Source of the DNA: a phage
Length of the DNA stretch: 64,000 bases
Reading direction: 5' to 3' (one strand)
Sequence record: PV419677.1
Below the pieces are notes generated by a model, which was given only the letters and a program-made list of their open reading frames with translations, was not told where the DNA came from and did no database searches. Each line of letters opens with the position of its first letter. Position 1 is the first letter of the stretch. Position numbers and translations under genes: made by a program. Positions 17,481-63,512 of the stretch are shown one piece after another.

Positions 17481-17548
17481 TTTTGTGATTCAGTTTGTAA
17501 CTCAGTATGGAATCATTATGCATCAGGTCAAGGGTCATGTACACTACT
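17481..17548 (-). promoter_or_regulatory. early promoter cassette (type B leader)
   Basis: minus strand GTGTACA -35, about 17 nt spacer, CATAAT -10, then conserved leader ...UUCCAUACUGAGUUAC; repeated at 21721, 35596, 43795. Confidence 0.5.
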
Positions 17549-17562
17549 TTTTTTAAAATATT

Positions 17563-17592
17563 TTAAAATAAAAAAGGACCCCGAAGGGTCCT
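17563..17592 (-). terminator. rho-independent terminator
   Basis: GGACCC-UUCG-GGGUCC hairpin plus U-run after small ORF downstream of gene 52. Confidence 0.6.
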
Positions 17593-17689
17593 AGTCTTTA
17601 TCTATCTTATTACCAATAAACATACCAACAATCACACCTGCGATTGCCGCAAAAATACAAAGCAATGCAAACTCAACTCCAAAACTCAT
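17591..17689 (-). CDS. small hydrophobic protein (32 aa)
   Basis: ATG overlaps gp52 TGA (ATGA); MSFGVEFALLCIFAAIAGVIVGMFIG single TM. Confidence 0.35.
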   Translation of the reverse strand: MSFGVEFALLCIFAAIAGVIVGMFIGNKIDKD

Positions 17690-19065
17690 AGAGCCTCCAA
17701 ATCATTAAGGTATTCAGTTTTAACATCAGTTGTCTTCCAGTACTCATGCTCAGCTTTCTTAGCCTTTGCTTCGTCTGCAAGCTTCTTGGCTTCATCAGAG
17801 GTCATATGGTAGATGTTCATCGCCACTAACTTCTCTGCATAATCGCCATATATTTCACTCGCCTGGAGTTCCTCAATCAACTTCTTACGAGGTTTTCCCT
17901 GGATAACAACCTTACCATCAATCACTTCTTTAATAAAGAAGACTTTTGCCCGGGCCAGTTTAAATGCCGCTTCAGTTTCTTTAATCTTACTGTCAATTCG
18001 CACTTGAACATAAGTCTTACGGACATCAACGAAATCGCGAATCAGGTCAAGCGTGTTGGTATATTCAGCCAATTTGCCTTTGTGATTAAGCACAGTTAAG
18101 TTCTGGGAGAGCTTCTCAATCAGACCAAAGTCTTTCATGATTTTCTCATGATTCTCTTCTTCGGTGCCATCCAACTTGTATTCTTTACGGAATTTAATCT
18201 TAAACCCAAAACCATGTTCACCGCAGTTATCTTTCCAGGTGATAAAACCTTTCTCTTCCAGCGGGTCCAGGATTTTACTTGTATATTTTTCCAGGTTCCA
18301 TTGGACCGGGATTTCAGTAATTTCCATTTGAGTCCGGGAAGTCATTTTGTACGTGCCATGAAGTTCATACTTACCAGGCTCTTCCAGCTCAACAACTTTA
18401 CCACGGAATTCTGGATATTTTACTTTCGGAGCAACCGGCTCACGACCTTCCACGATAGCTTTAACAGCTTCCTTGACGTCCTGGAACGAATGAGGAAGGA
18501 TATCAGTAGCAAAGCCAACAGCAATCCCAGAAGTGGCGTTAAGTAATACAGTAGGAATAACAGGAAGATAAAAAGCAGGAGGCTTATGTTCTTCATCAGG
18601 ATGGACCGGAGCATATTCTGTATCCTTAAACAAGTTGTAAAAGTTCTTTGAAACCCTTGCGAATACATAACGAGCCGATGATGCTTCTGGTACCATTCTG
18701 GAACCAAAGTTACCTTGCCCATCAAACATAGGATATTCATTTTTATATGTTGCAACCAGACCAGAAGTTGCTTCTTCCGCTGATGCTTCACCATGGTGAT
18801 AACCATAATCAGCTACGCCACCTGCGATGGATGCAACTTTATGGAATTTATTCTTATCACCACGCGCCAGGTCTAATGCTCTCGCCATAACAAATCTGTG
18901 AACTGGTTTAAAACCATCAATCATGTTTGGGATGGCACGACCTTCCACAGTGTAGATAGCATATGACAATGCTTCCACATCAATAATGTCTTTTAGACTG
19001 CGTGGGTTAAGGGTCCCCATGGAATCACTGAACTGTTTGGACATCATACTTAAAACGTCAGACAT
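17686..19065 (-). CDS. 52: DNA topoisomerase II medium subunit gp52
   Basis: 459 aa (T4 442 aa); GyrA-like N-terminus ...GFKPVHRFVMARALD... Confidence 0.9.
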   Translation of the reverse strand: MSDVLSMMSKQFSDSMGTLNPRSLKDIIDVEALSYAIYTVEGRAIPNMIDGFKPVHRFVMARALDLARGDKNKFHKVASIAGGVADYGYHHGEASAEEATSGLVATYKNEYPMFDGQGNFGSRMVPEASSARYVFARVSKNFYNLFKDTEYAPVHPDEEHKPPAFYLPVIPTVLLNATSGIAVGFATDILPHSFQDVKEAVKAIVEGREPVAPKVKYPEFRGKVVELEEPGKYELHGTYKMTSRTQMEITEIPVQWNLEKYTSKILDPLEEKGFITWKDNCGEHGFGFKIKFRKEYKLDGTEEENHEKIMKDFGLIEKLSQNLTVLNHKGKLAEYTNTLDLIRDFVDVRKTYVQVRIDSKIKETEAAFKLARAKVFFIKEVIDGKVVIQGKPRKKLIEELQASEIYGDYAEKLVAMNIYHMTSDEAKKLADEAKAKKAEHEYWKTTDVKTEYLNDLEAL

Positions 19066-19073
19066 ATATCACC

Positions 19074-19214
19074 TTACCAGATTAACGAATGTACTGCCAT
19101 TATAGCATCAGAAATAAAAAGCACAACCTGCACTAATGCAAACACAACTCCATAATAAAGCGCCACCAACAAAGTAGCAAGGGCTAACGAGTAGCCCAAG
19201 ATTTTCTTAATCAT
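19074..19214 (-). CDS. small hydrophobic protein (46 aa)
   Basis: ATGA overlap with upstream ORF; hydrophobic; ac/52.1 locus of T4. Confidence 0.35.
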   Translation of the reverse strand: MIKKILGYSLALATLLVALYYGVVFALVQVVLFISDAIMAVHSLIW

Positions 19215-19359
19215 TTTTATCCAATAATTTAAATAGTGTTAAAGTCGCTAATACACCTTGAGCTGTTGACTGCAGAAATACTGAAGTTTCTCCAGTTATT
19301 AATGTTCCAACAAATAAAAATGACCAACAGAAAAAAGCTACGCCATGAACAAATTTCAT
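19207..19359 (-). CDS. small hydrophobic protein (50 aa)
   Basis: ATG with GAGGA Shine-Dalgarno; hydrophobic; ac/stp locus. Confidence 0.4.
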   Translation of the reverse strand: MKFVHGVAFFCWSFLFVGTLITGETSVFLQSTAQGVLATLTLFKLLDKND

Positions 19360-19439
19360 ATTTTCCTCAAGGGCGTCCAAAGACGCCAGTTAATTTCAGA
19401 TTATAACGATGCCATTGCATCACGTGTTCATTATGGAAA

Positions 19440-19613
19440 TTACTCATATATACCACACATTTTGCATAAGCGTTCAAAACAGATATACCCACCACTAAAG
19501 CACATAGTAACAGCAACTTTATCATTAAATGGAGCACCAAATGCTATAAAGGCTCCTGTAATAACAAATAGTGCTAAAACAAATAGGTAACCCATTGTAA
19601 AGAAATGTCTCAT
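19440..19613 (-). CDS. small membrane protein (57 aa)
   Basis: ATG one nt after ndd stop; TM segment [19 protein letters not shown]. Confidence 0.35.
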
Positions 19614-19614
19614 A

Positions 19615-20064: not shown

Positions 20065-20095
20065 ATTAATTTCCTCAGTAAGTTAAAGTTTTGTG

Positions 20096-20138
20096 CTCCA
20101 GTGGGGTCATTATACTCTGACCCCAAGAGTTTGTACAC
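20096..20138 (-). promoter_or_regulatory. early promoter cassette (type A) upstream of ndd
   Basis: minus strand GTGTACA-N17-TATAAT; -10 lies in loop of inverted repeat GGGGTCA/TGACCCC; 44 bp identical to 31163..31202. Confidence 0.55.
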
Positions 20139-20482: not shown

Positions 20483-20502
20483 AATATTTTCCTCAATTAA
20501 AT

Positions 20503-20540
20503 TTTATTATCCATGGGAACATTATACTCTGCTCCCAAGA
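20503..20540 (-). promoter_or_regulatory. early promoter cassette (type A)
   Basis: near-identical copy of the 20096 cassette (GTGTACAAACTCTTGGG..GAGTATAATG). Confidence 0.5.
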
Positions 20541-20549
20541 GTTTGTACA

Positions 20550-20795
20550 CTATTCTACATCTACCGCGTCATCCCACAAGTCAACTTCTTCTGATGATTC
20601 CATCAGTTCATCAACTGTGAAGCACTCAGTATTATTTTCAATTGCAAAACGCTTCTGATAAAAAGGATAATCCAAACAGTTTTCAGTGCGCACGGGGCGC
20701 TCGCTGTTATCCATTAAAGGCGAAATGCGAATCAGTTGTTGACCATTACCCAGGACAAATTTTTCACCAACTGCAATGTCTTTAAAAAGTTTCAT
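20550..20795 (-). CDS. hypothetical protein
   Basis: 81 aa; acidic C-terminus. Confidence 0.5.
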   Translation of the reverse strand: MKLFKDIAVGEKFVLGNGQQLIRISPLMDNSERPVRTENCLDYPFYQKRFAIENNTECFTVDELMESSEEVDLWDDAVDVE

Positions 20796-21125: not shown

Positions 21126-21132
21126 AATCATC

Positions 21133-21180
21133 TCCAGTAGTTGATAGGTTCATTATACTACAACCACTGGAGATGTACAC
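21133..21180 (-). promoter_or_regulatory. early promoter cassette (type A)
   Basis: GTGTACA-N16-TATAAT followed by leader AUCAACUACUGGAG. Confidence 0.5.
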
Positions 21181-21270
21181 TCTTTTATGCAAGTTTCATT
21201 AATAATAAACTAAAACAAACGCAAATTACTGGGATACACAGCATCCAGATAAGGCACCAGGTTTTGCTGC

Positions 21271-21537: not shown

Positions 21538-21547
21538 TTTATTTTCC

Positions 21548-21703
21548 TCATGCATAACGATTGTATGTATTTTTGCGACACGCGTAAAATTGACGCTCAG
21601 TAACTGCAAAACTTTTTCCACGTTGTTGCATTAATTTAAAAAATTCAGTAATATCGCCATTAACTTCAAGGTATAAAGTCATTGCATATTGAGCAGGTTT
21701 CAT
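21548..21703 (-). CDS. hypothetical small protein (51 aa)
   Basis: ATG with GGAGA Shine-Dalgarno just downstream of a type B cassette. Confidence 0.35.
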   Translation of the reverse strand: MKPAQYAMTLYLEVNGDITEFFKLMQQRGKSFAVTERQFYACRKNTYNRYA

Positions 21704-21720
21704 TTTATTCTCCAGTTGTT

Positions 21721-21770
21721 TGGTAACTCAGTATGGAATCATTATACATAGACTCCATACTGATGTACAC
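21721..21770 (-). promoter_or_regulatory. early promoter cassette (type B leader)
   Basis: GTGTACA -35 and TATAAT -10, conserved leader shared with 17481/35596/43795. Confidence 0.5.
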
Positions 21771-21780
21771 TACTTTTTAA

Positions 21781-22056
21781 TTAATTGTGCATTTGTTCTT
21801 TAACTTCTTTATATGCGCCAACTGCATTCACGACCCCAGTAAAATCTGCAGTCCCACGATAGAGATAGAAAGCGATTTCAGTCAGGTGGTAGACTTCAAA
21901 TTCTGAAAGATAAATGATAACGTCATAATAGGCAACTTGTCCCTGGACTTCGTTGAATACTACATCAAAAATTTCATGGGTTGGAAAATTGATGTTGTTG
22001 TTTTTGAGTGCTTGAATAAGAATTTGTTTGATGTTATTAGTAGTAACGTGTTCCAT
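21781..22056 (-). CDS. hypothetical protein
   Basis: 91 aa from ATG at 22056 with GAGGA Shine-Dalgarno. Confidence 0.45.
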   Translation of the reverse strand: MEHVTTNNIKQILIQALKNNNINFPTHEIFDVVFNEVQGQVAYYDVIIYLSEFEVYHLTEIAFYLYRGTADFTGVVNAVGAYKEVKEQMHN

Positions 22057-22059
22057 GAT

Positions 22060-22114
22060 AATGTCCTCATTTGTGTGTGAGGACATTATTACATGGTTGG
22101 TTCAGCTTGTAAAC
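22060..22114 (-). promoter_or_regulatory. early promoter
   Basis: minus strand GTTTACA -35, 16 nt spacer, TAATAAT -10. Confidence 0.45.
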
Positions 22115-29431: not shown

Positions 29432-29471
29432 CTTTCCTCTTGTGTATGGAGGTATTATAAGTCACATATTT

Positions 29472-29495
29472 TAAAGCAAAAAGGCCCGAAGGCCT
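29472..29495 (-). terminator. rho-independent terminator
   Basis: GGCC-UUCG-GGCC hairpin plus U-run downstream of lipoprotein gene. Confidence 0.5.
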
Positions 29496-31131: not shown

Positions 31132-31162
31132 AATTTTCTCTCTTGGTTAATAAGTTTATTCT

Positions 31163-31202
31163 CCAGTGGGGTCATTATACTCTGACCCCAAGAGTTTGTA
31201 CA
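31163..31202 (-). promoter_or_regulatory. early promoter cassette (type A)
   Basis: 44 bp identical to 20096..20138. Confidence 0.55.
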
Positions 31203-31210
31203 CTTTAAAT

Positions 31211-32223: not shown

Positions 32224-32229
32224 TTTGTT

Positions 32230-32285
32230 ATCCTCATCAGTAGTTGATGAGGTGATTATGTCTCTTTCCATTGGCCTTGTACACT
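32230..32285 (-). promoter_or_regulatory. early promoter cassette (type A) with leader stem-loop
   Basis: GTGTACA -35; leader CCUCAUCA-ACUAC-UGAUGAGG hairpin sequesters Shine-Dalgarno. Confidence 0.5.
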
Positions 32286-32290
32286 ACTTT

Positions 32291-32974
32291 TTATCGTTTT
32301 TTCGGTAAAGATAACGGGTCTGCATCTTCTTCGGAAGGAACTTCATCCAAACCAAGAGCATAGCGCTGGGCATACTTAAGCATCAAAATATCTTTCGCGC
32401 AGTCATGCACCGAATCGTGCGCCACAAATCCGTCTAAAGTCCCCTTCGGTAATGGAGTTTCACACATCTTACGGACGAGTGACAGGGCTTCGATTGCTGT
32501 TCTGATATCTCGCTGGTTCCAGAATACAACCGGCTCCAGGCCATAGGTATTCAATTCACGCTCGGGAATACCCTCATTGCGCTGTAGGTCACGGATAAGG
32601 TCAACAAACAACGGGAAGTCAAAAGACATTCCACGACACCACATAAGGCTTTCGTATTTGTTAATTCCATTACCATTCAGATAATCAATTGCCTGTTGGA
32701 TACCGGTCAGAGTATCAACATCTTGCGCAGAAGGAGCCAAGTTAACACGGGCTTCTGCTGATTGCTTTTTCCACCAACCCATGGTTGTTGTATCGAACAG
32801 ACGCTTACCTTTTTGGTATTCAAGGCTAAACTTGATACGTTTGCCGCGATTAACCAGGGTTTCGAATGATTCCACAATAACAGGGTCAGATTCGAATGTA
32901 ATCAGGGCCAGGTCAATAACGGCTCCCTTCGAGCCGTTTCCCAGAGTTTCAAAGTCAATAATAGCATCAATCAT
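32291..32974 (-). CDS. dexA: exonuclease A (DnaQ-like 3'-5' exonuclease)
   Basis: 227 aa, same length as T4 DexA; MIDAIIDFETLG exo motif I; synteny next to dda. Confidence 0.8.
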   Translation of the reverse strand: MIDAIIDFETLGNGSKGAVIDLALITFESDPVIVESFETLVNRGKRIKFSLEYQKGKRLFDTTTMGWWKKQSAEARVNLAPSAQDVDTLTGIQQAIDYLNGNGINKYESLMWCRGMSFDFPLFVDLIRDLQRNEGIPERELNTYGLEPVVFWNQRDIRTAIEALSLVRKMCETPLPKGTLDGFVAHDSVHDCAKDILMLKYAQRYALGLDEVPSEEDADPLSLPKKR

Positions 32975-35571: not shown

Positions 35572-35595
35572 GATATTTTTCTCATCTTACGGACG

Positions 35596-35648
35596 ATTTG
35601 GTAACTCAGTATGGATTCATTATACACCATCCATTAGGTGTGTACACT
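35596..35648 (-). promoter_or_regulatory. early promoter cassette (type B leader)
   Basis: GTGTACA -35, TATAAT -10, conserved type B leader. Confidence 0.5.
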
Positions 35649-35706
35649 ACTTTTTCGCCTTTAACGCTTTTATTTTTACTGTGTATAATGGTTCTAAGGT
35701 CTTTGG

Positions 35707-36321: not shown

Positions 36322-36329
36322 TTTATTAT

Positions 36330-36382
36330 CCTCATCAGTAGTTGATAGGAACATCTTAACGTGTCTTATTGTTCTTGTACAC
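36330..36382 (-). promoter_or_regulatory. early promoter cassette (type A)
   Basis: GTGTACA-N17-TAAGAT and AUCAACUACUGAUGAGGA leader. Confidence 0.5.
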
Positions 36383-36926: not shown

Positions 36927-36982
36927 AATGGTCTCTCTGTTGTAAGAAAGACCATTATGACATTAGGAGGGGAGTAAGTAAA

Positions 36983-37231
36983 CTACTTAAATACTCCAAG
37001 TGGAACGCCAAAGACTGCAATGTCTACGGCCATACCAATCGGAGATTGATATGATGGAGATTGATATGATGAGTAAGAACTTTTCGATTTTATCGGGGTT
37101 TCGACTTTAATTGTCTCGGATTCAGTCTTAAGCCTTTGTAAACGATTAATTTTTTGTTGCTCGATTTCCTTATGAGCATGTTTACGGTCGATATCCAGCG
37201 CCGATGTGGGAATATTTGTTAACCAGTTCAT
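36983..37231 (-). CDS. hypothetical protein with Ser/Tyr-rich repeat
   Basis: 82 aa from ATG at 37231 (ATGA overlap with upstream ORF); SSYSSYQSPSYQSP repeat. Confidence 0.4.
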   Translation of the reverse strand: MNWLTNIPTSALDIDRKHAHKEIEQQKINRLQRLKTESETIKVETPIKSKSSYSSYQSPSYQSPIGMAVDIAVFGVPLGVFK

Positions 37232-38762: not shown

Positions 38763-38804
38763 AGTATTCTCCTCTGTAATTGAAATAATTATACCGCTTC
38801 TATT

Positions 38805-38835
38805 AAAAGCAAAAAGGGAACCCGAAGGTTCCCTA
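38805..38835 (-). terminator. rho-independent terminator after soc
   Basis: GGGAACC-UUCG-GGUUCCC hairpin plus U-run. Confidence 0.6.
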
Positions 38836-42577: not shown

Positions 42578-42580
42578 TTC

Positions 42581-42635
42581 AATCTCCTCAGTAGTTGATA
42601 GGGATAATATACAGCATTACCCCTTTGTTGTACAC
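42581..42635 (-). promoter_or_regulatory. early promoter cassette (type A) upstream of sp
   Basis: GTGTACA-N17-TATATT; leader AUCAACUACUGAGGAG. Confidence 0.5.
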
Positions 42636-43399: not shown

Positions 43400-43415
43400 T
43401 TTATTCTCCAGTAGT

Positions 43416-43462
43416 TGATAGAGTCATTATAACATAAGAAAAAGGGGCTGTAAGCCCCTTTG
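43416..43462 (-). promoter_or_regulatory. hairpin plus early promoter
   Basis: AGGGGC-UUACA-GCCCCU hairpin with U-run then TATAAT and AUCAACUACUGGAG leader. Confidence 0.45.
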
Positions 43463-43467
43463 TTCAC

Positions 43468-43770
43468 TTACGCCAACTCATAGTTGTGCATAGTCAGACA
43501 ACGAATTTTCCCAGTAGTTGGGTGCATAACAGTCACACTAATTGTGTAATCATCACACACGTTAACAAAAGGTTCAGCGATAACATATACTGCCCCACCC
43601 GCCAACAGGTATTCACGAAGAGAGCTGCGAACAGATGAAGGTTGAACATCGCTTTTGAGCTTTATTAATTTACCAGTTTGAATGCCTGATGCGATAAGAG
43701 CAGCACAGTTTTCATCACGGCGAGCGAATTGTCCAAAATAGTAACGATTCATGTCGGTTTGATTAAACAT
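43468..43770 (-). CDS. hypothetical protein
   Basis: 100 aa; no T4 counterpart recalled between dmd and 41. Confidence 0.5.
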   Translation of the reverse strand: MFNQTDMNRYYFGQFARRDENCAALIASGIQTGKLIKLKSDVQPSSVRSSLREYLLAGGAVYVIAEPFVNVCDDYTISVTVMHPTTGKIRCLTMHNYELA

Positions 43771-43794
43771 ATGGTTTTCCTTTTAACAGTTGGT

Positions 43795-43852
43795 TTATTG
43801 TGTAACTCAGTATGGAATCATTATGTCCTAAGACAAGGGGCTTGTACACCCC
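43795..43852 (-). promoter_or_regulatory. early promoter cassette (type B leader)
   Basis: -35 GTGTACA sits in loop of AAGGGG/CCCCUU hairpin. Confidence 0.5.
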
Positions 43853-43866
43853 TTTTTAAAAATATT

Positions 43867-47785: not shown

Positions 47786-47805
47786 TTTAATATCCTTAAT
47801 TTAAT

Positions 47806-47856
47806 CATCAGTAGTTGATGGAGTAATCATACGGCAATCCTTTGCTGTTGTAAACA
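47806..47856 (-). promoter_or_regulatory. early promoter upstream of imm
   Basis: GTTTACA-N17-TATGAT and AUCAACUACUGAUGA leader. Confidence 0.5.
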
Positions 47857-47857
47857 C

Positions 47858-50082: not shown

Positions 50083-50094
50083 AATGTCTCCTTA

Positions 50095-50135
50095 ATTTAA
50101 AAATATTTTAGCGCGCTTCCTTGCGCTTGTACAAC
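50095..50135 (-). promoter_or_regulatory. promoter-like element for homing endonuclease gene
   Basis: minus strand GTTGTACA...TAAAAT then GGAGA Shine-Dalgarno inside 53-nt spacer between 43A stop and endonuclease ATG. Confidence 0.35.
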
Positions 50136-51659
50136 TTAAAGATGGTTTAAAAGGTCTTTAATCAATTCACTATTACGTTGTGCCGCCAACATCTTTTTCT
50201 TTTCGGTTTTTCGTTGATTAAAAACTTTCTCAACTTCTGTCGGAATAATACCTGCAACATCTTTAAAATACATCATGCCATTTGGAGCACAACTAAATGT
50301 ATCAGATGGACGGTCAGCAGTTCCTGCGATGTATTCATACATCGGCGCAGGAGCAAATGAACCGGCAATCGTTTCTGGACTGATGTTAATCTGTCGGATG
50401 ATGCTCGGATACAGAGATGTCAAGTCACAGCTCATAACGTATTTGTATGCGTTCGGAATCGGTTCCTTAACAAATGCACCAGGGAATGATTGACGAACAT
50501 GCGATTTGGTTTCCGGAATGACTTTGTTTTGAGTCTTCAGGCTGTTAAAGATAATCGCATCCCAAGTTTTGATTGGGCTGAATACAGACTGAATCTGCAT
50601 TTTTGCGTAATAACCCATTGACTGGCTAAGGTTAATAAACTGGCGCTTACGGTCAATCTGTACAACACGATAAACATCGATGATGTTATAAGAAATATAC
50701 CGTTGGTGATTTGATTCACGCAGTTTAGAAATCGGACCATCATACGGGAGTTTACCAACACCCAGCTCAGATTCCGCAACATAATCCAACGAATAAGACG
50801 GTTGGTTTGTGAAGCTGAACTTTTTATACAGGTCCAGATAATCCAGAACAGAGATACCCAGAATCTGAATGATTTCTTGTTCTTCACCAAAGCCGTTGTT
50901 AATTACTTTAACTTTTGTACGACGATGTGGGCTCAGACGTTTTGCTGTGGCTTCACCAAATACATTTTTAAGGCGGTTGTAGATATACGGAATATCAAAC
51001 TTCTCGATGTTCCAACCAGTTAACATAACCGGAGTTTTCTCGTTCCAGAATACCAAATACTGCTGGAGCATTTCTTCTTCTGAATCGAAAGCCATATAAA
51101 CAATTTTTTCCAGGATTTCTTCAGGGACTTCATCGCCGCCATCTTCTTGCAGCTTGGCAGCAATATCAATAGACCATTGCTCCACAGTGGCGTATGGTGA
51201 GCTCAAAAGGTCAAAGACATAGAATTTATCGTCTACCGAATCATAGTGCGTCAGGGCATCAATAGGGTGACGTGCTTCAGACGGCTCAGGGAACCCATCC
51301 GGAGATGTCACCTCGATATCGAAGTTAGCCACACGGATTTTACTTGAATCGTATTTGATTTCGTGTGGATAACGGTCGGACAAGTATGCGAGTTTAAAGT
51401 CATCCATACCCATAGCTTCGAGACCCATGTCATTCATTCGCTTCATCCACTGGGATGCATCACGCATGGAATCGAATTCTTTTTTCACACAACCTTTATT
51501 ATAGATGTCTGTATACTTTGCAGCCTGGTCTTCGCGAGCATGCATAAACAAGCATGGAGCATAAGGGATTTCACGAACACGTTCATGACCATTCTTGTCA
51601 ATGTATCGTTCAAGCAGATTGTCACCGATTTGTTCGATAGTTAAATAAAATTCTTGCAT
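50136..51659 (-). CDS. 43: DNA polymerase gp43, subunit 43A (exonuclease and palm motif A)
   Basis: 507 aa; collinear with T4 gp43 N-terminal about 510 residues incl. FDIEVT, SLYPSIIRQ; ends with stop before the motif B region. Confidence 0.9.
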   Translation of the reverse strand: MQEFYLTIEQIGDNLLERYIDKNGHERVREIPYAPCLFMHAREDQAAKYTDIYNKGCVKKEFDSMRDASQWMKRMNDMGLEAMGMDDFKLAYLSDRYPHEIKYDSSKIRVANFDIEVTSPDGFPEPSEARHPIDALTHYDSVDDKFYVFDLLSSPYATVEQWSIDIAAKLQEDGGDEVPEEILEKIVYMAFDSEEEMLQQYLVFWNEKTPVMLTGWNIEKFDIPYIYNRLKNVFGEATAKRLSPHRRTKVKVINNGFGEEQEIIQILGISVLDYLDLYKKFSFTNQPSYSLDYVAESELGVGKLPYDGPISKLRESNHQRYISYNIIDVYRVVQIDRKRQFINLSQSMGYYAKMQIQSVFSPIKTWDAIIFNSLKTQNKVIPETKSHVRQSFPGAFVKEPIPNAYKYVMSCDLTSLYPSIIRQINISPETIAGSFAPAPMYEYIAGTADRPSDTFSCAPNGMMYFKDVAGIIPTEVEKVFNQRKTEKKKMLAAQRNSELIKDLLNHL

Positions 51660-52910: not shown

Positions 52911-53893
52911 TTCATTTCCCCAGCCAGTTGAGCAAACAGATAAGTCAAGTGAACTTCGGTATTGGCCGCAATGCCATGGTACTGATTATTCTCACCTACA
53001 ATCTCATACATGCGGATGATACTTGCACCAGTCAGTTTGCCATACATTTCATCAGCCAGCTTTGCAATGAAGCTTGAATAATCATTTGCATGCTTAGGAG
53101 CCAGACCACGGAGAACTTTAAAGTTACGGTCCTTAAGGGCATCAATCACATCATCAATTGGCGTGCGATTGTTTGTCACGATACTCAGAATACCAGAATC
53201 GATAACACCCTTTGCAGAGTAACGGTCAAGCTCGTTAATTGTCTTACGCAGGTCCGGGAAGTTATGCTTAACCAGAGCAGCAACAACTTTCAGGTCTTCG
53301 ATTTCAACGCCTTCGTTTTTACATATCGCAACCGCACGATGAATCATCTCTTTCATCATAGTAGTCTGGTCAGCTGGAGTTGCTTCACCAAACTTAATTA
53401 CGCGACAACGAGACTGCAACGGAGTAATGATGCCATCGATATTGTTCGCGGTCATAATGATTGAACAGTTGCTCGAATAAGCTTCCATAAAGCTACGGAG
53501 GTGTCGTTGTGATTCTGCCAGACCTGCACGGTCGAACTCATCGATAACAATTACCTTACGGCGACCTTCGATTGATTTGGATGATGCAAAGCGAGTCAAT
53601 TCATTACGCACAAAGTCAATTCGGCAATCGGAGCCGTTAACAAACAGCATATCAGAATTCGTATCTGCGCACATAGCTTTTGCAACTGTTGTCTTACCAG
53701 TACCAGGGGAACTACTGACCAGAATCAAGTTAGGAATCAAACCTTTTTTAACAATCGCCTCTAATGTTTCTTTATCGTGAGCCGGGAGAATACACTCTGA
53801 TAATGTACCTGGGCGGTATTTTTGTTCCCACATGAAGTCGGATTCGTTGACTGTCAAACCGTTAATTACTGTTGCCATTATTATTTTCCTCAT
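52901..53893 (-). CDS. 44: clamp loader large subunit gp44 (AAA+)
   Basis: 330 aa (T4 319 aa); Walker A SPGTGKTT. Confidence 0.9.
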   Translation of the reverse strand: MRKIIMATVINGLTVNESDFMWEQKYRPGTLSECILPAHDKETLEAIVKKGLIPNLILVSSSPGTGKTTVAKAMCADTNSDMLFVNGSDCRIDFVRNELTRFASSKSIEGRRKVIVIDEFDRAGLAESQRHLRSFMEAYSSNCSIIMTANNIDGIITPLQSRCRVIKFGEATPADQTTMMKEMIHRAVAICKNEGVEIEDLKVVAALVKHNFPDLRKTINELDRYSAKGVIDSGILSIVTNNRTPIDDVIDALKDRNFKVLRGLAPKHANDYSSFIAKLADEMYGKLTGASIIRMYEIVGENNQYHGIAANTEVHLTYLFAQLAGEMKWL

Positions 53894-54440
53894 TAAATTT
53901 TTTAACTATTTTATTCAATTCATTGGCTGAATAATTATACCCATAGTTCCGCAAAAGCGTACTGAACTTACCGCGCTTTGGTTTATCCAGCTCTATCCAA
54001 ATTTTTAACAGTTCATCATAGTGATTCCAAACTTCAGAACGCTGCCATAACGAACAATTCAATTTATGTGTTTTACTAAATGTTCGAGATACACCAGTAC
54101 GTGATTCAGACATTTGTCTACGAGTTTCTTCTGTATGAAAATCAACTCCACCATTACCGCCTGGATGAACATTAACACATTTATTTCCATATTCAATAAG
54201 ACCTTTGGCAACAATCAAAGATTCATAGTGTTTAGCTTCTTTGAAAGTTTTTACTTCTTTAATAATTTTTGTATCGAATAACCAAAGCCCAGGAATTAAA
54301 TCATTTTCTTTTCGACAAGCTTTAATAAACGTTCCACTGCCGTGATATTCTTCACCGGTCAAACGATGTCTACCAAAATAATGATAAACATCGTTTGATG
54401 CAGTATTTGTTATTTTTGTATGATAACAAATGTATGACAT
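53862..54440 (-). CDS. putative GIY-YIG (Seg-like) homing endonuclease between 45 and 44
   Basis: 192 aa from ATG at 54440 (GGAGA Shine-Dalgarno); SYICYH...VYHYFG and VHPGGNGG resemble Seg-family motifs; overlaps gp44 start by 32 nt. Confidence 0.5.
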   Translation of the reverse strand: MSYICYHTKITNTASNDVYHYFGRHRLTGEEYHGSGTFIKACRKENDLIPGLWLFDTKIIKEVKTFKEAKHYESLIVAKGLIEYGNKCVNVHPGGNGGVDFHTEETRRQMSESRTGVSRTFSKTHKLNCSLWQRSEVWNHYDELLKIWIELDKPKRGKFSTLLRNYGYNYSANELNKIVKKFNEENNNGNSN

Positions 54441-54471
54441 TTTATTCTCCATGGGGCCGAAGCCCCATTTA

Positions 54472-55663: not shown

Positions 55664-55882
55664 TTAATCAAAGTATTCATATGCGAACCAGGCATTGTGT
55701 CTGTTCGCGATTATTTTAACATATTCTTCACCGAAAGCGTTTTGCAAGTCACGTTCAGTGACAAGGTGTTCATCTTTCGAAAAGGTATTAACTAACACAT
55801 ACCGTTTAATTTCAGGGACAGCCAGTAAATGCTGCCCGGTTAAAAAATTGCTCATAAATAATATTATCCGTTGCAGTATCAA
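55664..55882 (-). CDS. hypothetical protein
   Basis: 72 aa. Confidence 0.4.
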   Translation of the reverse strand: MILQRIILFMSNFLTGQHLLAVPEIKRYVLVNTFSKDEHLVTERDLQNAFGEEYVKIIANRHNAWFAYEYFD

Positions 55883-55895
55883 ACAAGGGTCTGAT

Positions 55896-56612
55896 ATGAA
55901 TTATAACATCATTTACCAAAAGCTTATTAGCAGAGCATTGAATCGCAAATTAACCACATACTCTGAAAGCCATCACATTATACCCCGTTGTATGGGTGGG
56001 GCTGACGACGCTTCAAATCTTGTTGATTTAACTCCCGAGGAACATTTCGTTTGCCATCAACTGTTGGTCAAAATGCATCCAAATAACGCTTCTTTGGTCT
56101 ATGCCGCGCGCATGATGACAGTTTCTGCACCAAATGCCGACAGAAGCAAAAATAAATTATTTGGATGGCTTCGTCGTAAAAACTTGGAAGCTCAACAAAA
56201 TAAAATTTTCTCCGATGAAACCAGAAAGAAAATGTCAGAATCCGCCAAATTAAAACCGAGAGTCGAATGTCCACACTGTGGAAAAACCGGTCTCGCTGGC
56301 AATATGAATCGTTGGCATTTTGATAACTGTTCCAAAGGTCCAAACAAGGTTGTTCATACTATTCCGGAAAAGCAAAAGCAAAAAATTTCAGTAGGTTTAA
56401 AACAAGCTAAACATGAAATTTTAAATTGTGAATTTTGCGGGCTTGAAGGTAAAAAGTGTGTTATATCCACTCACCGACAATTCTGCAAATCCAATCCAAA
56501 CCGGAAGAAAAAGGTGGACCCCAAAATTCAGTGTCCACACTGTAATGTAGTCAGTACGCCAGCTAATATGAAACGTTGGCATTTTGATAACTGCAAAATG
56601 AAGCCTCAATAA
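55896..56612 (+). CDS. HNH homing endonuclease with two C-terminal zinc fingers (mob-like)
   Basis: 238 aa from ATG at 55896; HNH core SHHIIPRCMGG...NLVDLTPEEHFVCH; two CPHCG...RWHFDNC fingers; plus strand amid minus-strand genes. Confidence 0.75.
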   Translation: MNYNIIYQKLISRALNRKLTTYSESHHIIPRCMGGADDASNLVDLTPEEHFVCHQLLVKMHPNNASLVYAARMMTVSAPNADRSKNKLFGWLRRKNLEAQQNKIFSDETRKKMSESAKLKPRVECPHCGKTGLAGNMNRWHFDNCSKGPNKVVHTIPEKQKQKISVGLKQAKHEILNCEFCGLEGKKCVISTHRQFCKSNPNRKKKVDPKIQCPHCNVVSTPANMKRWHFDNCKMKPQ

Positions 56613-56617
56613 GAGGC

Positions 56618-58312
56618 TCATTCCAGAACAGTAAATCGACCGACTTTTTTCATTTGAAGATGCTGTCCATATGCTTCTGGGTCATGGTCTCGGTGACTGA
56701 TGATAAACACGTTTTGACCTTCCAATTTATTGATAATTGCCTGGATAGCTTTGATGCCTTCGGCGTCAGTGGCTGAATCCATGACCTCATCCAGAATCAA
56801 CGTACTAATTTGCACACCAGATACTTTCGCAGCAATATCGCGCCATGTAAACAGCAATGCAATATCTATACGAGCTTTTTCACCCTGGCTAAATGATGCA
56901 TAGCTAAAGTCTTCACGTCCACGAGATTTAATCGTTTCGTTGAACTCTTCATCTAACGTAAAGCTATAATCAGCTTCCATAACTTTAAGATAAGCGTTTA
57001 TCTGCTTATTAAAGATAGGAATATATTTCTTAATAATCGCGCCCTTAATACCAGAATCTTTCAACATATCCGTTAGGATACCACGTTGATATTTTTCCAT
57101 CACAAGGTCGGATTTCTGTTTGACTATTTTATCAAGCTGGTCTTGGAGCATTTTAATGTCTGCTGCATGGTCAATGAATTCCGACTTGGCTTGCTCGATT
57201 AATGCTTTAACCTTTTTAGCTTTTTCGACAGTCTGGACTAAGGTTTGTTTCTTAGTTTGAATGTCTTGAGCTATTGTACGCTGGTTTTGTCTTGCCTTGG
57301 TATACGCATCAAATTGCTCCTGAACAACATTCTGGCGAGCTTTATGCTTATCAGCCGAAGCATTACATTCTTCAATCTTTGACTCAATCCTGGCGACAAT
57401 AGGGTCTCCTGGATGCAACTGACTGGCACAGGTCTGACAACAACCACCTTTCTCGTACAGACCAACAACCTTTCGATAATCGTCAATCTTCGACTTAATC
57501 AGGAATGATTCTTGCTTTAACTTCGTGAGTTCATGCTCAGGGTCTTCTCCCAAGATTATCTCGGTCAGTCTTGTCGTTGCTTCTTCGATAGTTGTCTTGA
57601 TTCCACGTGCTTCTGTGGCAAGTTCATCATACATCGTTTGCAGTCGCAACAGATTATCGCCTGACAATTTTCTTTGACGGTCTTCGTTGTCCTGATAGAT
57701 TTTAATCTGTTGAACAATACCATCATGCTGCACATCCATCACCTGGATTTGGCTATTGACTTCGCGGATAAGAGATTTGTTCAACTTATCCATATCGGCC
57801 AGTACAGAAACCTCTAAAAGGTCTTCGACAAGCTTTCTTCTGGCAGGAGTGGATAGGCCCATAAAAGGGGTATATCCAGCTGTGCCGAGTACGACAATTT
57901 GTTTGAAACTGGCGTATGACATTCCGATAAGCTGTTCAAATTCCGCTTGGAAGTCTTTACTGCTGGCAGATTCATCAAGACGTTTACCGCCACAAGAGAT
58001 TTCAAAAACATTGGGTTTTTGCCCGCGTTTGATATAGTATTCTTTTCCATCATATTCCATCCACAATTCAACGAGCATATCTTTTTTGTTGCTCGAGTTA
58101 ATCAGCTGACCTTTCTTTACATCACGGAAAGGCTTACCGAACATAGCAAAGGTAACCGCTTCAAGGAACGTAGATTTACCTGCGCCATTCTTGCCGGTGA
58201 CCAGAGTTTTCTGAACTTTATCCAGTTCAACAGTAATCGGTTGAGCACCAACCGACATAATATTTTTATAGATAACTTTCTTAAGCTTAAAAGTCTTCAT
58301 CGTAATAAGCAT
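56618..58312 (-). CDS. 46: recombination endonuclease subunit gp46 (Rad50-like)
   Basis: 564 aa (T4 560 aa); Walker A GKNGAGKST. Confidence 0.9.
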   Translation of the reverse strand: MLITMKTFKLKKVIYKNIMSVGAQPITVELDKVQKTLVTGKNGAGKSTFLEAVTFAMFGKPFRDVKKGQLINSSNKKDMLVELWMEYDGKEYYIKRGQKPNVFEISCGGKRLDESASSKDFQAEFEQLIGMSYASFKQIVVLGTAGYTPFMGLSTPARRKLVEDLLEVSVLADMDKLNKSLIREVNSQIQVMDVQHDGIVQQIKIYQDNEDRQRKLSGDNLLRLQTMYDELATEARGIKTTIEEATTRLTEIILGEDPEHELTKLKQESFLIKSKIDDYRKVVGLYEKGGCCQTCASQLHPGDPIVARIESKIEECNASADKHKARQNVVQEQFDAYTKARQNQRTIAQDIQTKKQTLVQTVEKAKKVKALIEQAKSEFIDHAADIKMLQDQLDKIVKQKSDLVMEKYQRGILTDMLKDSGIKGAIIKKYIPIFNKQINAYLKVMEADYSFTLDEEFNETIKSRGREDFSYASFSQGEKARIDIALLFTWRDIAAKVSGVQISTLILDEVMDSATDAEGIKAIQAIINKLEGQNVFIISHRDHDPEAYGQHLQMKKVGRFTVLE

Positions 58313-59706: not shown

Positions 59707-59751
59707 ATGTTCTCCTCAGTTGGTTCATTTTATCATCCCGAATATAAAGCA

Positions 59752-59783
59752 AAAAGGAAGCACTAGGCTTCCTTTCCAATTAA
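59752..59783 (-). terminator. putative rho-independent terminator
   Basis: AAGGAAGC-CUAGU-GCUUCCUU hairpin plus U-rich tail overlapping end of 57-aa ORF. Confidence 0.45.
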
Positions 59784-61870: not shown

Positions 61871-62126
61871 TTAAGTAGTCCAGGAATTCGTCTAATGTCA
61901 TGCCTTCCGCCCAAGCTTCCCAAGCATCGATTTTGGTGTACTTGGTTTTAGTACACATAGGATAGATTCTGAATTCATATCCCATTGAAATGAAATAATT
62001 TAAAGTCCTTTGTAAATAGTAACCTTGACTAATTTTATGAGCTCGGCGAATTCCATTAGCATACGTATGTTTGTATGATACTATTACCGCAACACCTTCA
62101 GGTAATTCAATAGCAGGACACATCAT
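61863..62126 (-). CDS. hypothetical protein
   Basis: 87 aa. Confidence 0.45.
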   Translation of the reverse strand: MMCPAIELPEGVAVIVSYKHTYANGIRRAHKISQGYYLQRTLNYFISMGYEFRIYPMCTKTKYTKIDAWEAWAEGMTLDEFLDYLND

Positions 62127-62449
62127 TTCGCACCCTTAATAATTTTCAGGTCAACAAAACCTTTCTTGCGCTGGGACTTCATACGCTTGATAGCTTTATC
62201 AGAAACTTCTTTGTTTTCACGCAGAAGCGGCAGACCAAACGCTACTACATCAAATTCATTCAGGATATACTGGACAAGGCTTTCACGAATACGCGCTTTA
62301 CCCATTGTCTGACCTTCTGCAATAATCAGTTTCTGTACATCGCCTTCCCACTGGTCCAGAATCTCAGGGGTAACAAAACCAGATTTCATCAGAGTGTTAA
62401 CTTTAGCAAATGCGAAATTAGCGATGATGTTAGTGATAGATGCAGTCAT
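62123..62449 (-). CDS. hypothetical protein
   Basis: 108 aa. Confidence 0.45.
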   Translation of the reverse strand: MTASITNIIANFAFAKVNTLMKSGFVTPEILDQWEGDVQKLIIAEGQTMGKARIRESLVQYILNEFDVVAFGLPLLRENKEVSDKAIKRMKSQRKKGFVDLKIIKGAK

Positions 62450-62521
62450 GATATATTCCTCAGTCTCATTAAATTAAAATTTTATTATCCTGGGGTCATT
62501 ATACCATGACCCCGTTGGTTT

Positions 62522-62719
62522 TTACTGCGCTTTAGCGCCTTTCCAGCCTTCATACATCATTGCAACGGACAAAAGCAGTGCGCCTTCGCATGCTGCGTAC
62601 TTATTATTCCAAAACCAGTTCAGAAAAACTTCATCCTCAATGCCAGAGTGTTTCATGTTCTGAAAAAATTTGGCACGTTCTTCTGCAATACGTTGTGACA
62701 ATTTAGATTGTGGATTCAT
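62522..62719 (-). CDS. hypothetical protein
   Basis: 65 aa from internal ATG; longer track ORF overlaps upstream gene. Confidence 0.35.
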   Translation of the reverse strand: MNPQSKLSQRIAEERAKFFQNMKHSGIEDEVFLNWFWNNKYAACEGALLLSVAMMYEGWKGAKAQ

Positions 62720-62726
62720 ATTTTCC

Positions 62727-63020
62727 TCAGCTATAGTAATAACAGATATTAGCTTTACGTTTGGCTGTTCGATGTGAAGTATTGTAATCCGGTTCGTCAT
62801 CCATGTAAACATCCTTTTTCAGCTTTCTCACTTCCCCGCGAGCAATTCGGTTCTGTTCGTTTTTAACTTCAGAAGAAATACCACCCATACGCTTCCATTT
62901 GTCTGAACGGAAGATATTTTCTTCAACTAAATCCTGACTTACGCCGTCTGGTGCTTTACGACGTCCGGAATAATAAAAATCTTTTACAGACAATTCTTTG
63001 CGACGAATAGTTTTACCCAT
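62727..63020 (-). CDS. hypothetical basic protein
   Basis: 97 aa; GAGGT Shine-Dalgarno; Lys/Arg-rich. Confidence 0.45.
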   Translation of the reverse strand: MGKTIRRKELSVKDFYYSGRRKAPDGVSQDLVEENIFRSDKWKRMGGISSEVKNEQNRIARGEVRKLKKDVYMDDEPDYNTSHRTAKRKANICYYYS

Positions 63021-63022
63021 AG

Positions 63023-63277
63023 TTACCTCAACAGTTTGTATCCAATAAGATTTTTAATGTACTGGATATCTTTGACATCCAAATCCAACTTAAGGTCTTT
63101 CAGACGGTCACCCAGGGTCAAAAAGGTTACATGCTTCCAATTCTTCACTGGGCAGCAATAAGTCTTAGGACCATTTGCAATTTCAATATTCTTATCAGTG
63201 ACGGTGAGAAAAATTAGGCGCTCATCATCCAGATTAAGGGTAATGATATTTTTCATTGAGTGTAATTTCAGGTTCAT
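63023..63277 (-). CDS. hypothetical protein
   Basis: 84 aa. Confidence 0.4.
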   Translation of the reverse strand: MNLKLHSMKNIITLNLDDERLIFLTVTDKNIEIANGPKTYCCPVKNWKHVTFLTLGDRLKDLKLDLDVKDIQYIKNLIGYKLLR

Positions 63278-63450
63278 AATTTAATTTCCTTAGCTATCGA
63301 ACAAAACACTCCACGGTCACAAATCATTTTAATACCAAGGTCAATTATGGTATACCACACATCCAGGCTAGATATTTCAGTTACTAAAACAGCTTTGCCG
63401 TTGATTGAATAATACTGGTTGACTTTAATTTCTTTATCATTGATAGTCAT
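63274..63450 (-). CDS. hypothetical protein
   Basis: 58 aa from ATG after conserved leader; upstream in-frame residues are translated leader. Confidence 0.35.
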   Translation of the reverse strand: MTINDKEIKVNQYYSINGKAVLVTEISSLDVWYTIIDLGIKMICDRGVFCSIAKEIKL

Positions 63451-63461
63451 TTTGTTTTCCT

Positions 63462-63512
63462 CATCAGTAGTTGATGGGATAATGATACACCGTTCAAAGG
63501 GGCTTGTACACC
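63462..63512 (-). promoter_or_regulatory. early promoter cassette (type A) with hairpins
   Basis: -35 GTGTACA in loop of AAAGGGG/CCCCUUU hairpin; leader CCUCAUCA-ACUAC-UGAUGGG. Confidence 0.5.

Follow-up and report, generated by a model that had tools for sequence, protein, structure and literature searches.

What are the short promoter-like repeats that recur between genes in the window, a stretch of 64,000 nucleotides of phage DNA (sequence record PV419677.1)? The window belongs to a T4-like coliphage of the genus Gaprivervirus, is about 98% identical to the phages UPEC07 and TH55, and has the minus strand as its gene strand. The repeats are early promoters of this T4-like E. coli phage, many of them lying inside RNA hairpins. 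The observation is real, yet largely ordinary, because a cassette of promoter and stem-loop is already a known kind of element. More precisely, we give a probability of about three in four to the reading that the cassettes are sigma-70-dependent early promoters in short intergenic units, which recur as paralogous families. Promoter activity and the +1 position were inferred from the sequence, and downstream genes were named by comparison with the annotation of VR7 and SP18.

A strict composite motif (GT[GT]TACA, a 16-17 nt spacer and TATAAT with at most one mismatch, A2 and T6 being kept) was searched on both strands of positions 14400-64000. It was found 15 times on the minus strand and 0 times on the plus strand, while 200 dinucleotide-preserving shuffles gave a mean of 0.07 and a maximum of 1 match. 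Relaxed scans and inspection extended this to 18-19 cassette sites, so the claim of the sequence-only reading that at least 14 gene-strand sites combine GTGTACA or GTTTACA with a TATAAT-like element holds. It is extremely improbable that the pattern is due to chance or simply reflects A/T-rich intergenic DNA. A scan for the generic sigma-70 consensus indeed gave no enrichment (73 matches where 57 +/- 8 were expected, and 65 where 57 +/- 6 were), but the phage-specific composite is enriched, with a total strand bias, and exact 11- and 14-mers occur in 7 and 4 copies. Furthermore, in an unbiased repeat search the cassettes made up the largest families of dispersed repeats in the region (D1-D5 and D7), and they are kept in relatives. 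The composite, k-mer and repeat counts thus already refute the chance reading.

The cassette consensus is aaaaA..a-GTGTACA-N17-g-tATAAT-ga.ccc-A(+1). The 25 nt upstream of the -35 element are 74% A/T, compared with 60% overall, and positions -3 to -1 are C-rich and followed by the A of the presumed +1. Both features agree with the published logos of T4-like early promoters (PMC1524935; PMC2988021). The early promoters of T4 and five T4-like phages described there share with the cassettes the GTTTAC-type -35, the 17-nt spacer, the TATAAT element, the A-rich UP-like region, the C-rich -3 to -1 followed by A, and the location upstream of asiA, motB, modB, srd, ndd, sp and imm. They differ in that T4 has GTTTACA, whereas most cassettes have GTGTACA, with G at the third -35 position.

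All cassettes described in the following are on the minus strand. Two leader families had been proposed from the sequence. Types A and B are real, but there is also a third family, C, as well as several cassettes outside any family, and the leaders are more aptly grouped into at least three paralogous families, with 7 (A), 4 (B) and 3-4 (C) copies. The type A leader ATCAACTACTG occurs in 7 exact copies where 0.96 would be expected, and all of them are on the minus strand. It continues in four different ways (...CTGATGAGGA in three copies, ...CTGATGATT in one, ...CTGGAGA in two and ...CTGAGGAG in one), and therefore the type A consensus as originally written fits only part of the copies. The seven copies are cassette 63482 (63451..63517; leader ATCAACTACTGATGAGG) upstream of a gene 55.6 homologue, 47826 (47786..47857) upstream of imm and with the leader of T4 imm.1, 43426 (43400..43467), 42606 (42578..42635) upstream of sp (spackle), 36353 (36322..36382; -10 TAAGAT) upstream of modA, 32255 (32224..32299) upstream of an 85-aa ORF homologous to VR7ORF013c, and 21152 (21132..21195) upstream of ndd.4. 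The leader of cassette 42606, AACTACTGAGGAGATT, is common to T4 sp. The type A leader is thus shared with T4 early promoters at the same loci (sp, imm.1), and it also stands before T4 denV.

The type B leader CCATACTGAGTTAC is present in 4 exact copies against 0.28 expected: cassette 43820 (43771..43866) upstream of a 100-aa ORF, 35619 (35572..35662) upstream of srd, 21741 (21704..21785), and 17515 (17465..17592) upstream of the ORF preceding motA. The type C leader GTGTACAAACTCTTGGGGTCAGAGTATAATGACCCCACTGGAG is found in cassettes 31174 (31132..31210; motB downstream), 20521 (20483..20550) and 20109 (20065..20138; ndd downstream), the last with 96% identity over 50 nt to the motB copy. A partial, type C-like copy without a -35 match lies near 62498 (62450..62528; repeat family D1). 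Four to five cassettes carry no family leader, namely those of modB (36954; 36927..36983), of a VR7ORF288c homologue (22085; 22057..22114), of asiA (14814; 14765..14843; beyond the range of the sequence-only reading) and the promoter-like cassette 50105 (50083..50135; TTGTACA-17-TAAAAT), upstream of a GIY-YIG endonuclease ORF within the gene 43 intron. The genes 3' of the cassettes therefore include imm, sp, modB, modA, srd, motB, ndd, ndd.4 and asiA. The statement that every cassette is followed by a small ORF of unknown function fails for about half of them, and the description as elements punctuating variable regions applies to some but not all, because many cassettes drive conserved, named early genes.

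About 11 cassettes have a conserved hairpin, backed by compensatory changes, with the 5' arm in the promoter spacer, -10 or -35 region and the 3' arm in the leader. The fold z-scores of -2.2 to -7.3 are stronger than chance, which bears out the inverted repeats reported around the -35 and -10 elements. The -35 is in the loop in cassettes 63482 (GTGTACA at 63505-63511 within AAAGGGG..CCCCTTT; -10 TATCAT at 63482-63487), 43820 (AAGGGG..CCCCTT) and 43426. The -10 is in the loop in cassettes 21741 (13-bp stem TCAGTATGGAGTC / GATTCCATACTGA), 21152 (TCTCCAGTGGTTG / CAACTACTGGAGA) and 31174 (GGGGTCA-GAGTATAA-TGACCCC, with the variant GGGAGCA..TGTTCCC in 20521). Hairpins also surround the -10 of cassette 42606 (AGGGGTAAT/ATTATCCCT) and the TGnTATAAT extended -10 near 62498 (GGGGTCA-TGGTATAA-TGACCCC), and a GCGC..GCGC stem lies between the hexamers of 50105. 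Comparable structures are known from T4, where inverted repeats with the -10 in the loop are annotated before ipIII, ipII and denV (record X04567) and dmd has a 12-bp stem around the -10. A conserved hairpin was not found in 5-7 cassettes (47826, 35619, 17515, 14814, 50105 and the downstream part of 43820).

Covariation of type A was assessed on 16 distinct promoters of T4, JS98-like and Gaprivervirus phages. Only one pair varies; it is UA in 8, AU in 5 and GU in 3 of them and unpaired in none, and the covariation score was reached by 0 of 500 shuffles. Stem orthologues mostly keep pairing (9 kept and 0 broken for 22085; 7 kept and 1 broken for each of 21152, 63482 and 36353), the modB stem runs through a C-G, U.G, U-A series, and type C has compensatory pairs. 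The ratio of G.T to A.C in the stems is 25:7, compared with 164:119 in the background, although the stems are not independent; this is suggestive of selection on RNA rather than on DNA. A sense-versus-antisense energy test on the stems did not discriminate.

In several cassettes the hairpin reaches the ribosome-binding site. The modB stem (CATAATGGTCTTTCT / AGAGAGACCATTATG, 15-19 bp), which starts at the -10 CATAAT, holds the Shine-Dalgarno sequence and AUG in its 3' arm, and in cassette 22085 the -10 is linked to the Shine-Dalgarno sequence by the stem TAATAATGTCCTCA / TGAGGACATTATCA, which extends up to the AUG. The ndd.4 stem has the Shine-Dalgarno GGAG in its 3' arm, and stems lie over the Shine-Dalgarno sequence of modA (TCCTATCA..TGAT(G)AGGA) and cassette 32255 (a perfect stem, CCTCATCA-ACTAC-TGATGAGG). 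Since the predicted transcription start lies within or past the 5' arm, we infer that the hairpin would form only in RNA read through from upstream promoters and not in RNA from the cassette's own promoter. In a subset, the Shine-Dalgarno sequence and/or AUG would then be buried in read-through RNA; this predicted burial is clear for modB, ndd.4, the ORF at 22085 and the copy near 62.5 kb, and partial for modA, 32255 and 63482. Translation of such genes would need their own early promoter and ignore read-through transcripts. Masking is not a property of the class: in read-through context, the unpaired probability of positions -14 to +3 averaged 0.49 both in 19 cassette genes and in 85 other genes (p = 0.23).

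The masking was followed across phages in the gene for the modB-type ADP-ribosyltransferase (mod), in which the -10/spacer of the early promoter pairs with the Shine-Dalgarno/AUG region in seven phages, with differing sequences. These are T4 (Tequatrovirus), the phage of the window (Gaprivervirus), phiEC1 (Mosigvirus), STP4-a (Gelderlandvirus), Virsaitis27 (Winklervirus), TG1 (Tegunavirus) and Klebsiella phage Roth79, whose record gives no genus. In six of the seven phages, the ribosome-binding region has a probability of 0.02-0.16 of being unpaired in read-through RNA, compared with 0.59-0.82 in own-promoter RNA; for Roth79, support comes from the fold obtained with the annotated start (z = -3.8). 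Structure in T4 modB RNA is mentioned in passing in PMC1702504. This RNA is structured in vitro and still cut by RegB in vivo (Durand et al.), and for that reason the structure may not be fully formed on nascent RNA. By analogy, the masking logic would be that of the T4 e, soc, 49 and I-TevI hairpins (PMC3014915), but with an early promoter. There, too, the Shine-Dalgarno sequence and/or AUG is in a helix whose 5' strand lies upstream of the start site of an internal promoter, and so only the longer read-through transcripts are masked. The difference lies in timing: in those T4 genes a late (or middle) internal promoter is combined with masked early RNA, whereas in the cassettes the internal promoter is predicted to be early and the masked RNA would stem from upstream early or middle promoters.

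The hairpins could instead be terminators, attenuators or 3'-end stabilisers that insulate the promoters from upstream transcription, with Shine-Dalgarno masking being incidental; we regard this as possible but less probable. A terminator scan found the 9-bp hairpin 43461-43441 of cassette 43426 (AAAGGGGC-TTACA-GCCCCTTT, followed by a T-run and with the -35 in the loop), and a separate intrinsic-terminator-like hairpin at 17592-17575, directly upstream of cassette 17515. These two and the 63482 hairpin look like terminators or attenuators with the -35 in the loop. Moreover, the PeSL211/210 stem-loop of RB49 stopped transcription in a reporter (PMC2839356), and a RegB-like GGAG directly follows the type C hairpins, where cleavage would leave a hairpin-protected 3' end. 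However, most stems (21152, 21741, 36954, 22085, 32255 and type C) are not followed by a T-run, and what the mod series conserves is the pairing of -10/spacer with the Shine-Dalgarno/AUG region and not a U-tract.

The leaders comprise the initial transcribed sequence, in about 11 cassettes the 3' arm of the hairpin, and often the Shine-Dalgarno sequence, in part as the RegB consensus GGAGAAUAAAA (PMC1702504; PMC3014915). This consensus has 4 gene-strand copies against 0.23 expected, three in cassette leaders and one at another gene. In several leaders, among them the ends of 43426 (GGAGAATAAAATG) and 21741, the Shine-Dalgarno sequence would thus be an exact T4 RegB/S1 cleavage site, as in the GGAGRAYARAA sites of early T4 mRNAs (PMC1702504); cleavage in this phage is predicted by applying the T4 consensus.

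Pairing does not explain the conservation of the type B leader, because five to seven cassettes have no conserved hairpin. The leaders (AUCAACUACUG, AUACUGAGUUACCAAA) might act independently of any hairpin, either as sites to which a trans-acting factor or RNA from phage or host binds, or as tuned initial transcribed sequences. Type B is kept in hairpin-less copies and in three promoters of Morganella phage MP1 with unrelated spacers, and type A is conserved in T4 as well as in JS98-like and Gaprivervirus phages. This explanation is nevertheless quite doubtful: no candidate factor is known, an Rfam search at gathering threshold gave no RNA family at any cassette or leader, and the promoter spacer co-varies wherever the 3' part of the leader varies.

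A close known system is that of the PeSLs of RB49/phi1, T4/PST and KVP40/nt-1 (PMC2839356; PMC4122927), together with the T-even internal-protein-locus repeats (Repoila et al. 1994, as cited in those papers). PeSLs consist of an A/T-rich upstream region, -35, -10, stem-loop, Shine-Dalgarno sequence and ATG, with the stem-loop overlapping the -35 or -10 or lying between them. The cassettes agree with this anatomy and with these stem positions, some have G-run/C-run stem arms, and they are scattered through early regions in one and the same orientation. Unlike PeSLs, they are not homologous in sequence to those of RB49, half of them precede conserved named genes, and many stems pair with the ribosome-binding site and have no U-tract.

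Assignment to the PeSLs, as first suggested, therefore stands for the anatomy and for module variation at one locus, but not for indel enrichment. Among 38 distinct indel events against 7 relatives, only 8 touch a cassette; with cassettes at 19 of about 105 gene junctions, this is no more than expected if indels fall at junctions between genes in general. The large indels are mostly insertions of homing endonucleases or introns, or cassette-free swaps. It is accordingly rather unlikely that the cassettes are chiefly mobile recombination modules in the strict PeSL sense, conserved for mini-circle excision and insertion of the flanked ORFs and driving most divergence among relatives. Cassettes 42606, 20521 and 21741 do have breakpoints at their edges, and the cassettes cluster at 19.4-22.1 kb and 42.6-43.9 kb; however, most inserted segments carry no cassette, and many cassettes (sp, imm, modB) precede conserved genes at loci where T4 and other genera have one too, a pattern that speaks for vertical conservation of function.

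The promoter reading leaves room for module exchange at the gene 41-dmd locus, where relatives carry one, two or three tandem modules of cassette and ORF. The module at 43461..43818 (minus strand), which comprises most of the type B cassette and the 100-aa ORF, is missing in TH55 and TH40, and its junction falls inside the GGGG..CCCC stem-loop common to cassettes 43820 and 43426, although the clean junction has no more than about 7-20 nt of shared homology. Dispersed direct repeats with such stems may thus be occasional substrates for gain and loss of cassette and ORF, as proposed for PeSLs.

By megablast, the window belongs to the T4-like coliphages of the genus Gaprivervirus, with UPEC07, TH55 and TH22 being about 98% identical. 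From about 14.5 kb to 64 kb every gene lies on the minus strand, and in comparison with the annotated VR7 and SP18 genomes the genes follow the order asiA, motA, 52, ndd, denB, rIIB, rIIA, 39, motB, dexA, dda, srd, modA, modB, soc, 56, 61, sp, dmd, 41, uvsX, imm, 43, 45, 46, 47, 55 and nrdH. The gene order is that of a T-even genome in its classical early/middle region.

The sequence-only reading had proposed a common early promoter motif at 14 or more gene-strand sites, and the counts bear this out. A strict composite motif, consisting of GT[GT]TACA, a 16-17 nt spacer and TATAAT with at most one mismatch, was found 15 times on the gene strand and 0 times on the opposite strand. All of these matches are intergenic or at gene 3' ends, and in dinucleotide-preserving shuffles the motif occurred 0.07 times on average and at most once. 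With relaxed scans and inspection of every intergenic gap the total comes to 18-19 cassettes. A scan with the generic sigma-70 consensus showed no enrichment; the phage-specific composite is the only informative promoter scan. The sites have the GT(T/G)TAC -35, the 16-18 nt spacer and the TAnnnT -10 of T4-type early sigma-70 promoters, on the gene strand and with an ORF downstream. Their aligned consensus is aaaaA..a-GTGTACA-N17-g-tATAAT-ga.ccc-A, with an UP-like region 5' of the -35 (74% A/T in 25 nt, compared with 60% across the whole strand) and C-rich positions -3..-1 followed by A at +1. It matches the published T4-like early-promoter pattern, which is C-rich at -3..-1 too (PMC1524935; PMC2988021). 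The repeated elements are the predicted early promoters of the phage, in composite promoter/stem-loop cassettes, and the observation is real and highly non-random. Cassettes of this kind have already been described in T4-type phages, in the internal-protein locus of T4 and as promoter-early stem-loops (PeSLs). Promoter activity and the +1 position at each site are predicted from the motif, and the 18-19 sites give a usable early-promoter map for the Gaprivervirus early region.

Besides the promoter motif, two families of conserved leaders, types A and B, had been described. Both are indeed repeated, with seven exact copies of the type A leader ATCAACTACTG, all on the gene strand (0.96 expected), and four of the type B 14-mer CCATACTGAGTTAC (0.28 expected). 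There is also a third family, type C (GTGTACAAACTCTTGGGGTCAGAGTATAATGACCCCACTGGAG), which had been overlooked; it has three copies and one partial copy, and the copies at ndd and motB share 96% identity across 50 nt. Several cassettes have no family leader at all, and those found 5' of modB, the ORF at 22085 (a VR7ORF288c homologue), asiA and the intron endonuclease gene had likewise been missed. A blind repeat search ranked the cassettes as the region's largest families of dispersed repeats. The suggestion that a small ORF of unknown function follows every cassette applies to only about half of them. Among the genes that follow are imm, sp, modB, modA, srd, motB, ndd, ndd.4 and asiA, and the claim that cassettes mainly precede unknown ORFs is not supported.

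The leader families are old elements common to T-even phages and not peculiar to this phage. In the T4 record X04567, inverted repeats with the -10 in the loop are annotated 5' of ipIII, ipII and denV, and the denV promoter combines the spacer TCTCCTGTAGG with the leader TATCAACTACAGGAGA. The T4 leaders of sp (AACTACTGAGGAGATT) and imm.1 (TATCAACTACTGAT) are both of type A and occupy the same loci as in the window, and at T4 dmd a 12-bp stem surrounds the -10. The type B leader was not found in T4; it occurs at 10-13 places per Gaprivervirus genome and also in Morganella and Providencia phages. Morganella phage MP1 has four annotated promoters within 1.6 kb (locus L003, 1-1560), each 5' of a small ORF, and three of them carry the type B leader, so that the family reaches the genus Gualtarvirus. 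These three promoters retain CATACTGAGTTA(A/C)CAAACAAAC despite unrelated spacers, and in one of them the register of pairing between spacer and leader is different. An IMG/VR scan with the type B 14-mer returned mostly chance matches, with promoter context in only 5 out of 129. At gathering thresholds Rfam has no family for the cassette leaders, the sole hit in the window being a group I intron.

Several leaders end in GGAGAATAAAATG, which is the exact T4 RegB/S1 consensus GGAGAAUAAAA (PMC1702504, PMC3014915). The consensus has four gene-strand copies in comparison with 0.23 expected, three of which are in cassette leaders. By sequence, these leaders offer GGAGRAYARAA, which is single-stranded in a RegB/S1 target, in an early intergenic region and are candidate target sites.

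To describe the secondary structure we folded RNA starting at the -35, which mimics read-through RNA from a promoter upstream of the cassette, and compared it with RNA starting at the predicted +1. The former contains strong stems in most cassettes (z = -2.2 to -7.3), which confirms the inverted repeats noticed at the -35 or -10 in the sequence-only reading, and the latter is nearly unstructured. Two layouts were found. In the first one, a GGGG..CCCC stem holds the -35 in its loop, as in the cassettes at 63482 (gene 55.6 homologue), 43820 and 43426; the 43426 stem has a T-run behind it and is scored as a terminator. In the second one, the spacer or the -10 forms the 5' arm and the leader, often with the Shine-Dalgarno sequence, forms the 3' arm. 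This layout is present at 21152 (ndd.4), 21741, 42606 (sp), 32255 (an 85-aa ORF), 36353 (modA), 36954 (modB), 22085 and in the type C cassettes. Overall, about 13 of the 19 cassettes have a stem-loop within or adjacent to the promoter, as described for PeSLs, with pairing kept in orthologues, and in five to seven of the 19 a conserved stem was not found. The weak predicted structures at 35619 (srd), 17515 (the ORF before motA) and 47826 (imm) were dropped because changes in the orthologues mostly break their pairs.

Across seven relatives, changes in the strong stems mostly retain pairing. In the 22085 stem nine changes kept the pairing and none broke it, in the 21152, 63482 and 36353 stems seven kept and one broke it each, and compensatory changes are seen in the modB and type C stems. 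When IMG/VR was scanned for type A leaders with the spacer left free, 16 distinct hairpin promoters were found. Among these the leader ACAGGAGA is invariably paired with the spacer TCTCCTGTAG, and the leader ACTGGAGA is accompanied by the spacer TCTCCAGTAG or TCTCCGGTGG. The variable pair is UA in eight, AU in five and GU in three promoters and is never unpaired, and its covariation score was reached by 0 out of 500 shuffles. The excess of G.T over A.C in the stems, which are not independent of each other (25:7, compared with 164:119 in the background), hints at selection on the sense RNA. The sense-versus-antisense difference in folding energy did not discriminate between cassettes (-1.55 kcal/mol) and random segments (-1.37 kcal/mol). 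From the folding we infer that the stems would act on read-through RNA.

The clearest hint of function comes from the mod gene. At modB of the window, the -10 (CATAAT) opens a 15-19 bp stem, which ends on ATTATG with the start codon and has the Shine-Dalgarno sequence in its 3' arm. In T4 modB this layout recurs with another sequence (-20.3 kcal/mol, z = -4.5), as it does in the ADP-ribosyltransferase homologues of phiEC1 (Mosigvirus), STP4-a (Gelderlandvirus), Virsaitis27 (Winklervirus), TG1 (Tegunavirus) and Klebsiella phage Roth79. These diverse ModB orthologues were gained by tblastn against phage records; a related-locus search gave only three near-identical loci and a homologous-protein search only two hits. 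A further hit in VEc20 (H98) was uninformative, being a paralogous ADP-ribosylase at another locus and without the hairpin. In six of the seven phages the unpaired probability of positions -13..+3 is 0.02-0.16 in the read-through RNA compared with 0.59-0.82 in the own-promoter RNA; these figures exclude Roth79, where the wrong ATG was picked and folding with the annotated start gives the same stem (z = -3.8). Six of the seven phages come from six named Tevenvirinae genera, while the Roth79 record has no genus. That the arrangement is kept with differing sequences in these phages suggests selection and not accident.

In T4 e, soc, 49 and I-TevI, the Shine-Dalgarno sequence or AUG is in a helix whose 5' arm is upstream of the start of an internal promoter (PMC3014915). 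The arrangement at the mod gene is the same, but the promoter inside the stem is an early one. The nearest upstream promoter in the window that would supply modB with read-through RNA is a putative MotA-box middle promoter near 38.8 kb. Masking of the ribosome binding site as a property of the whole cassette class was rejected, the unpaired probability being 0.49 for cassette genes and 0.49 for other genes (p = 0.23). Pairing of the Shine-Dalgarno sequence and/or AUG with a 5' arm that precedes the internal start site is restricted to a subset, which besides the mod gene includes ndd.4, 22085 and a copy near 62.5 kb.

For some immediate-early genes of T-even-type phages, these folds could reflect a general design in which translation is gated by the gene's own promoter, a tentative reading to which we give a probability of roughly 0.4. 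The -10 element or the promoter spacer would then also serve as the anti-Shine-Dalgarno or anti-AUG strand. Production of potentially harmful early proteins, such as the Mod ADP-ribosyltransferases and those like Ndd.4, would require transcripts of their own early promoters. Once these are off, the genes would stay silent, even though middle-mode read-through RNA covers them. In passing, Durand et al. describe T4 modB RNA as structured and nonetheless cut by RegB in vivo, which calls for caution on how fully the structure forms. If functional, the gating by these stems would extend a classic trick of T4 translational control from late to early genes and would explain the temporal confinement of toxic early enzyme expression.

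The cassettes had also been proposed to mediate modular gene shuffling, as PeSLs do. We aligned the window to VR7, SP18, TH55, TH40, TH54, TH41 and TH44 (91-96% identical) and found 38 separate indels or replacements of 40 nt or more. In eight of them, at least one end falls within a cassette interval. Cassettes make up 3% of the sequence yet occupy 19 of about 105 gene junctions, and therefore no enrichment over other gene junctions is evident; a general role in indel formation is not supported. The pattern expected of PeSLs is present at the gene 41-dmd locus. A single cassette is found here in TH55 and TH40. In the window there are two, separated by a 100-aa ORF, and SP18, TH41 and TH44 have three tandem modules of cassette and ORF. 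The TH55/TH40 junction falls in the AAAGGGG..CCCCTT stem-loop common to both window cassettes, which makes it one clean cassette-to-cassette event. Breakpoints also adjoin the cassettes at 42606 (in five relatives), 21741 and 20521. Most of the remaining events are without a cassette. Among them are the gene 43 intron with its endonuclease gene, two inserts (53.8-54.4 kb and 55.8-56.6 kb) and swaps of genes (15.7-16.3 kb, 22.7-22.9 kb and 23.1-23.7 kb). This tempers the PeSL idea: in Gaprivervirus the cassettes coincide with one or two hot spots of shuffling, and most indels are unexplained by them.

A 51-aa ORF right after a type B cassette (21540-21703) is absent from VR7, TH40 and TH54. Its junction shows a 6-13 nt overlap in the repeated GGAGAATAAAATG Shine-Dalgarno/start segment, indicating that the repeated ribosome binding site, and not only the promoter, can be a crossover point. 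Within motB, a 49-nt segment (30839-30889) is absent from five relatives, and the 14-nt overlap of its flanks points to a short in-gene duplication or deletion.

An insert of about 1.29 kb (48866-50135, minus strand), absent from all seven relatives compared, interrupts the DNA polymerase gene 43 and leaves it in two parts, 50136-51659 and 47858-48865. The insert contains the core of a group I intron at 48914-49127 (Rfam: RF00028, 81.4 bits) and, behind a promoter-like cassette of its own, a 272-aa GIY-YIG endonuclease ORF (49264-50082). Two further inserts, 53839-54441 and 55846-56620, are absent from all or most relatives. One of them has a 196-216-aa minus-strand ORF with a weak NUMOD3 match, possibly a seg-like endonuclease, and the other has a 305-aa plus-strand ORF (55695-56612) with only a weak zinc-ribbon match, antisense to the surrounding genes.

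On the minus strand, at 38763-38838, 29432-29494 and 59707-59762, there are GC hairpins that resemble terminators and have a UUCG-type loop. They are directly followed by TTTGCTTT(A/T) and, about 12 nt further, by TATAAT. These elements look like MotA-box middle promoters fused to terminators and resemble the PmSL elements named for phage nt-1. Further MotA-box-like promoters were found 5' of uvsX, 56 and 55.
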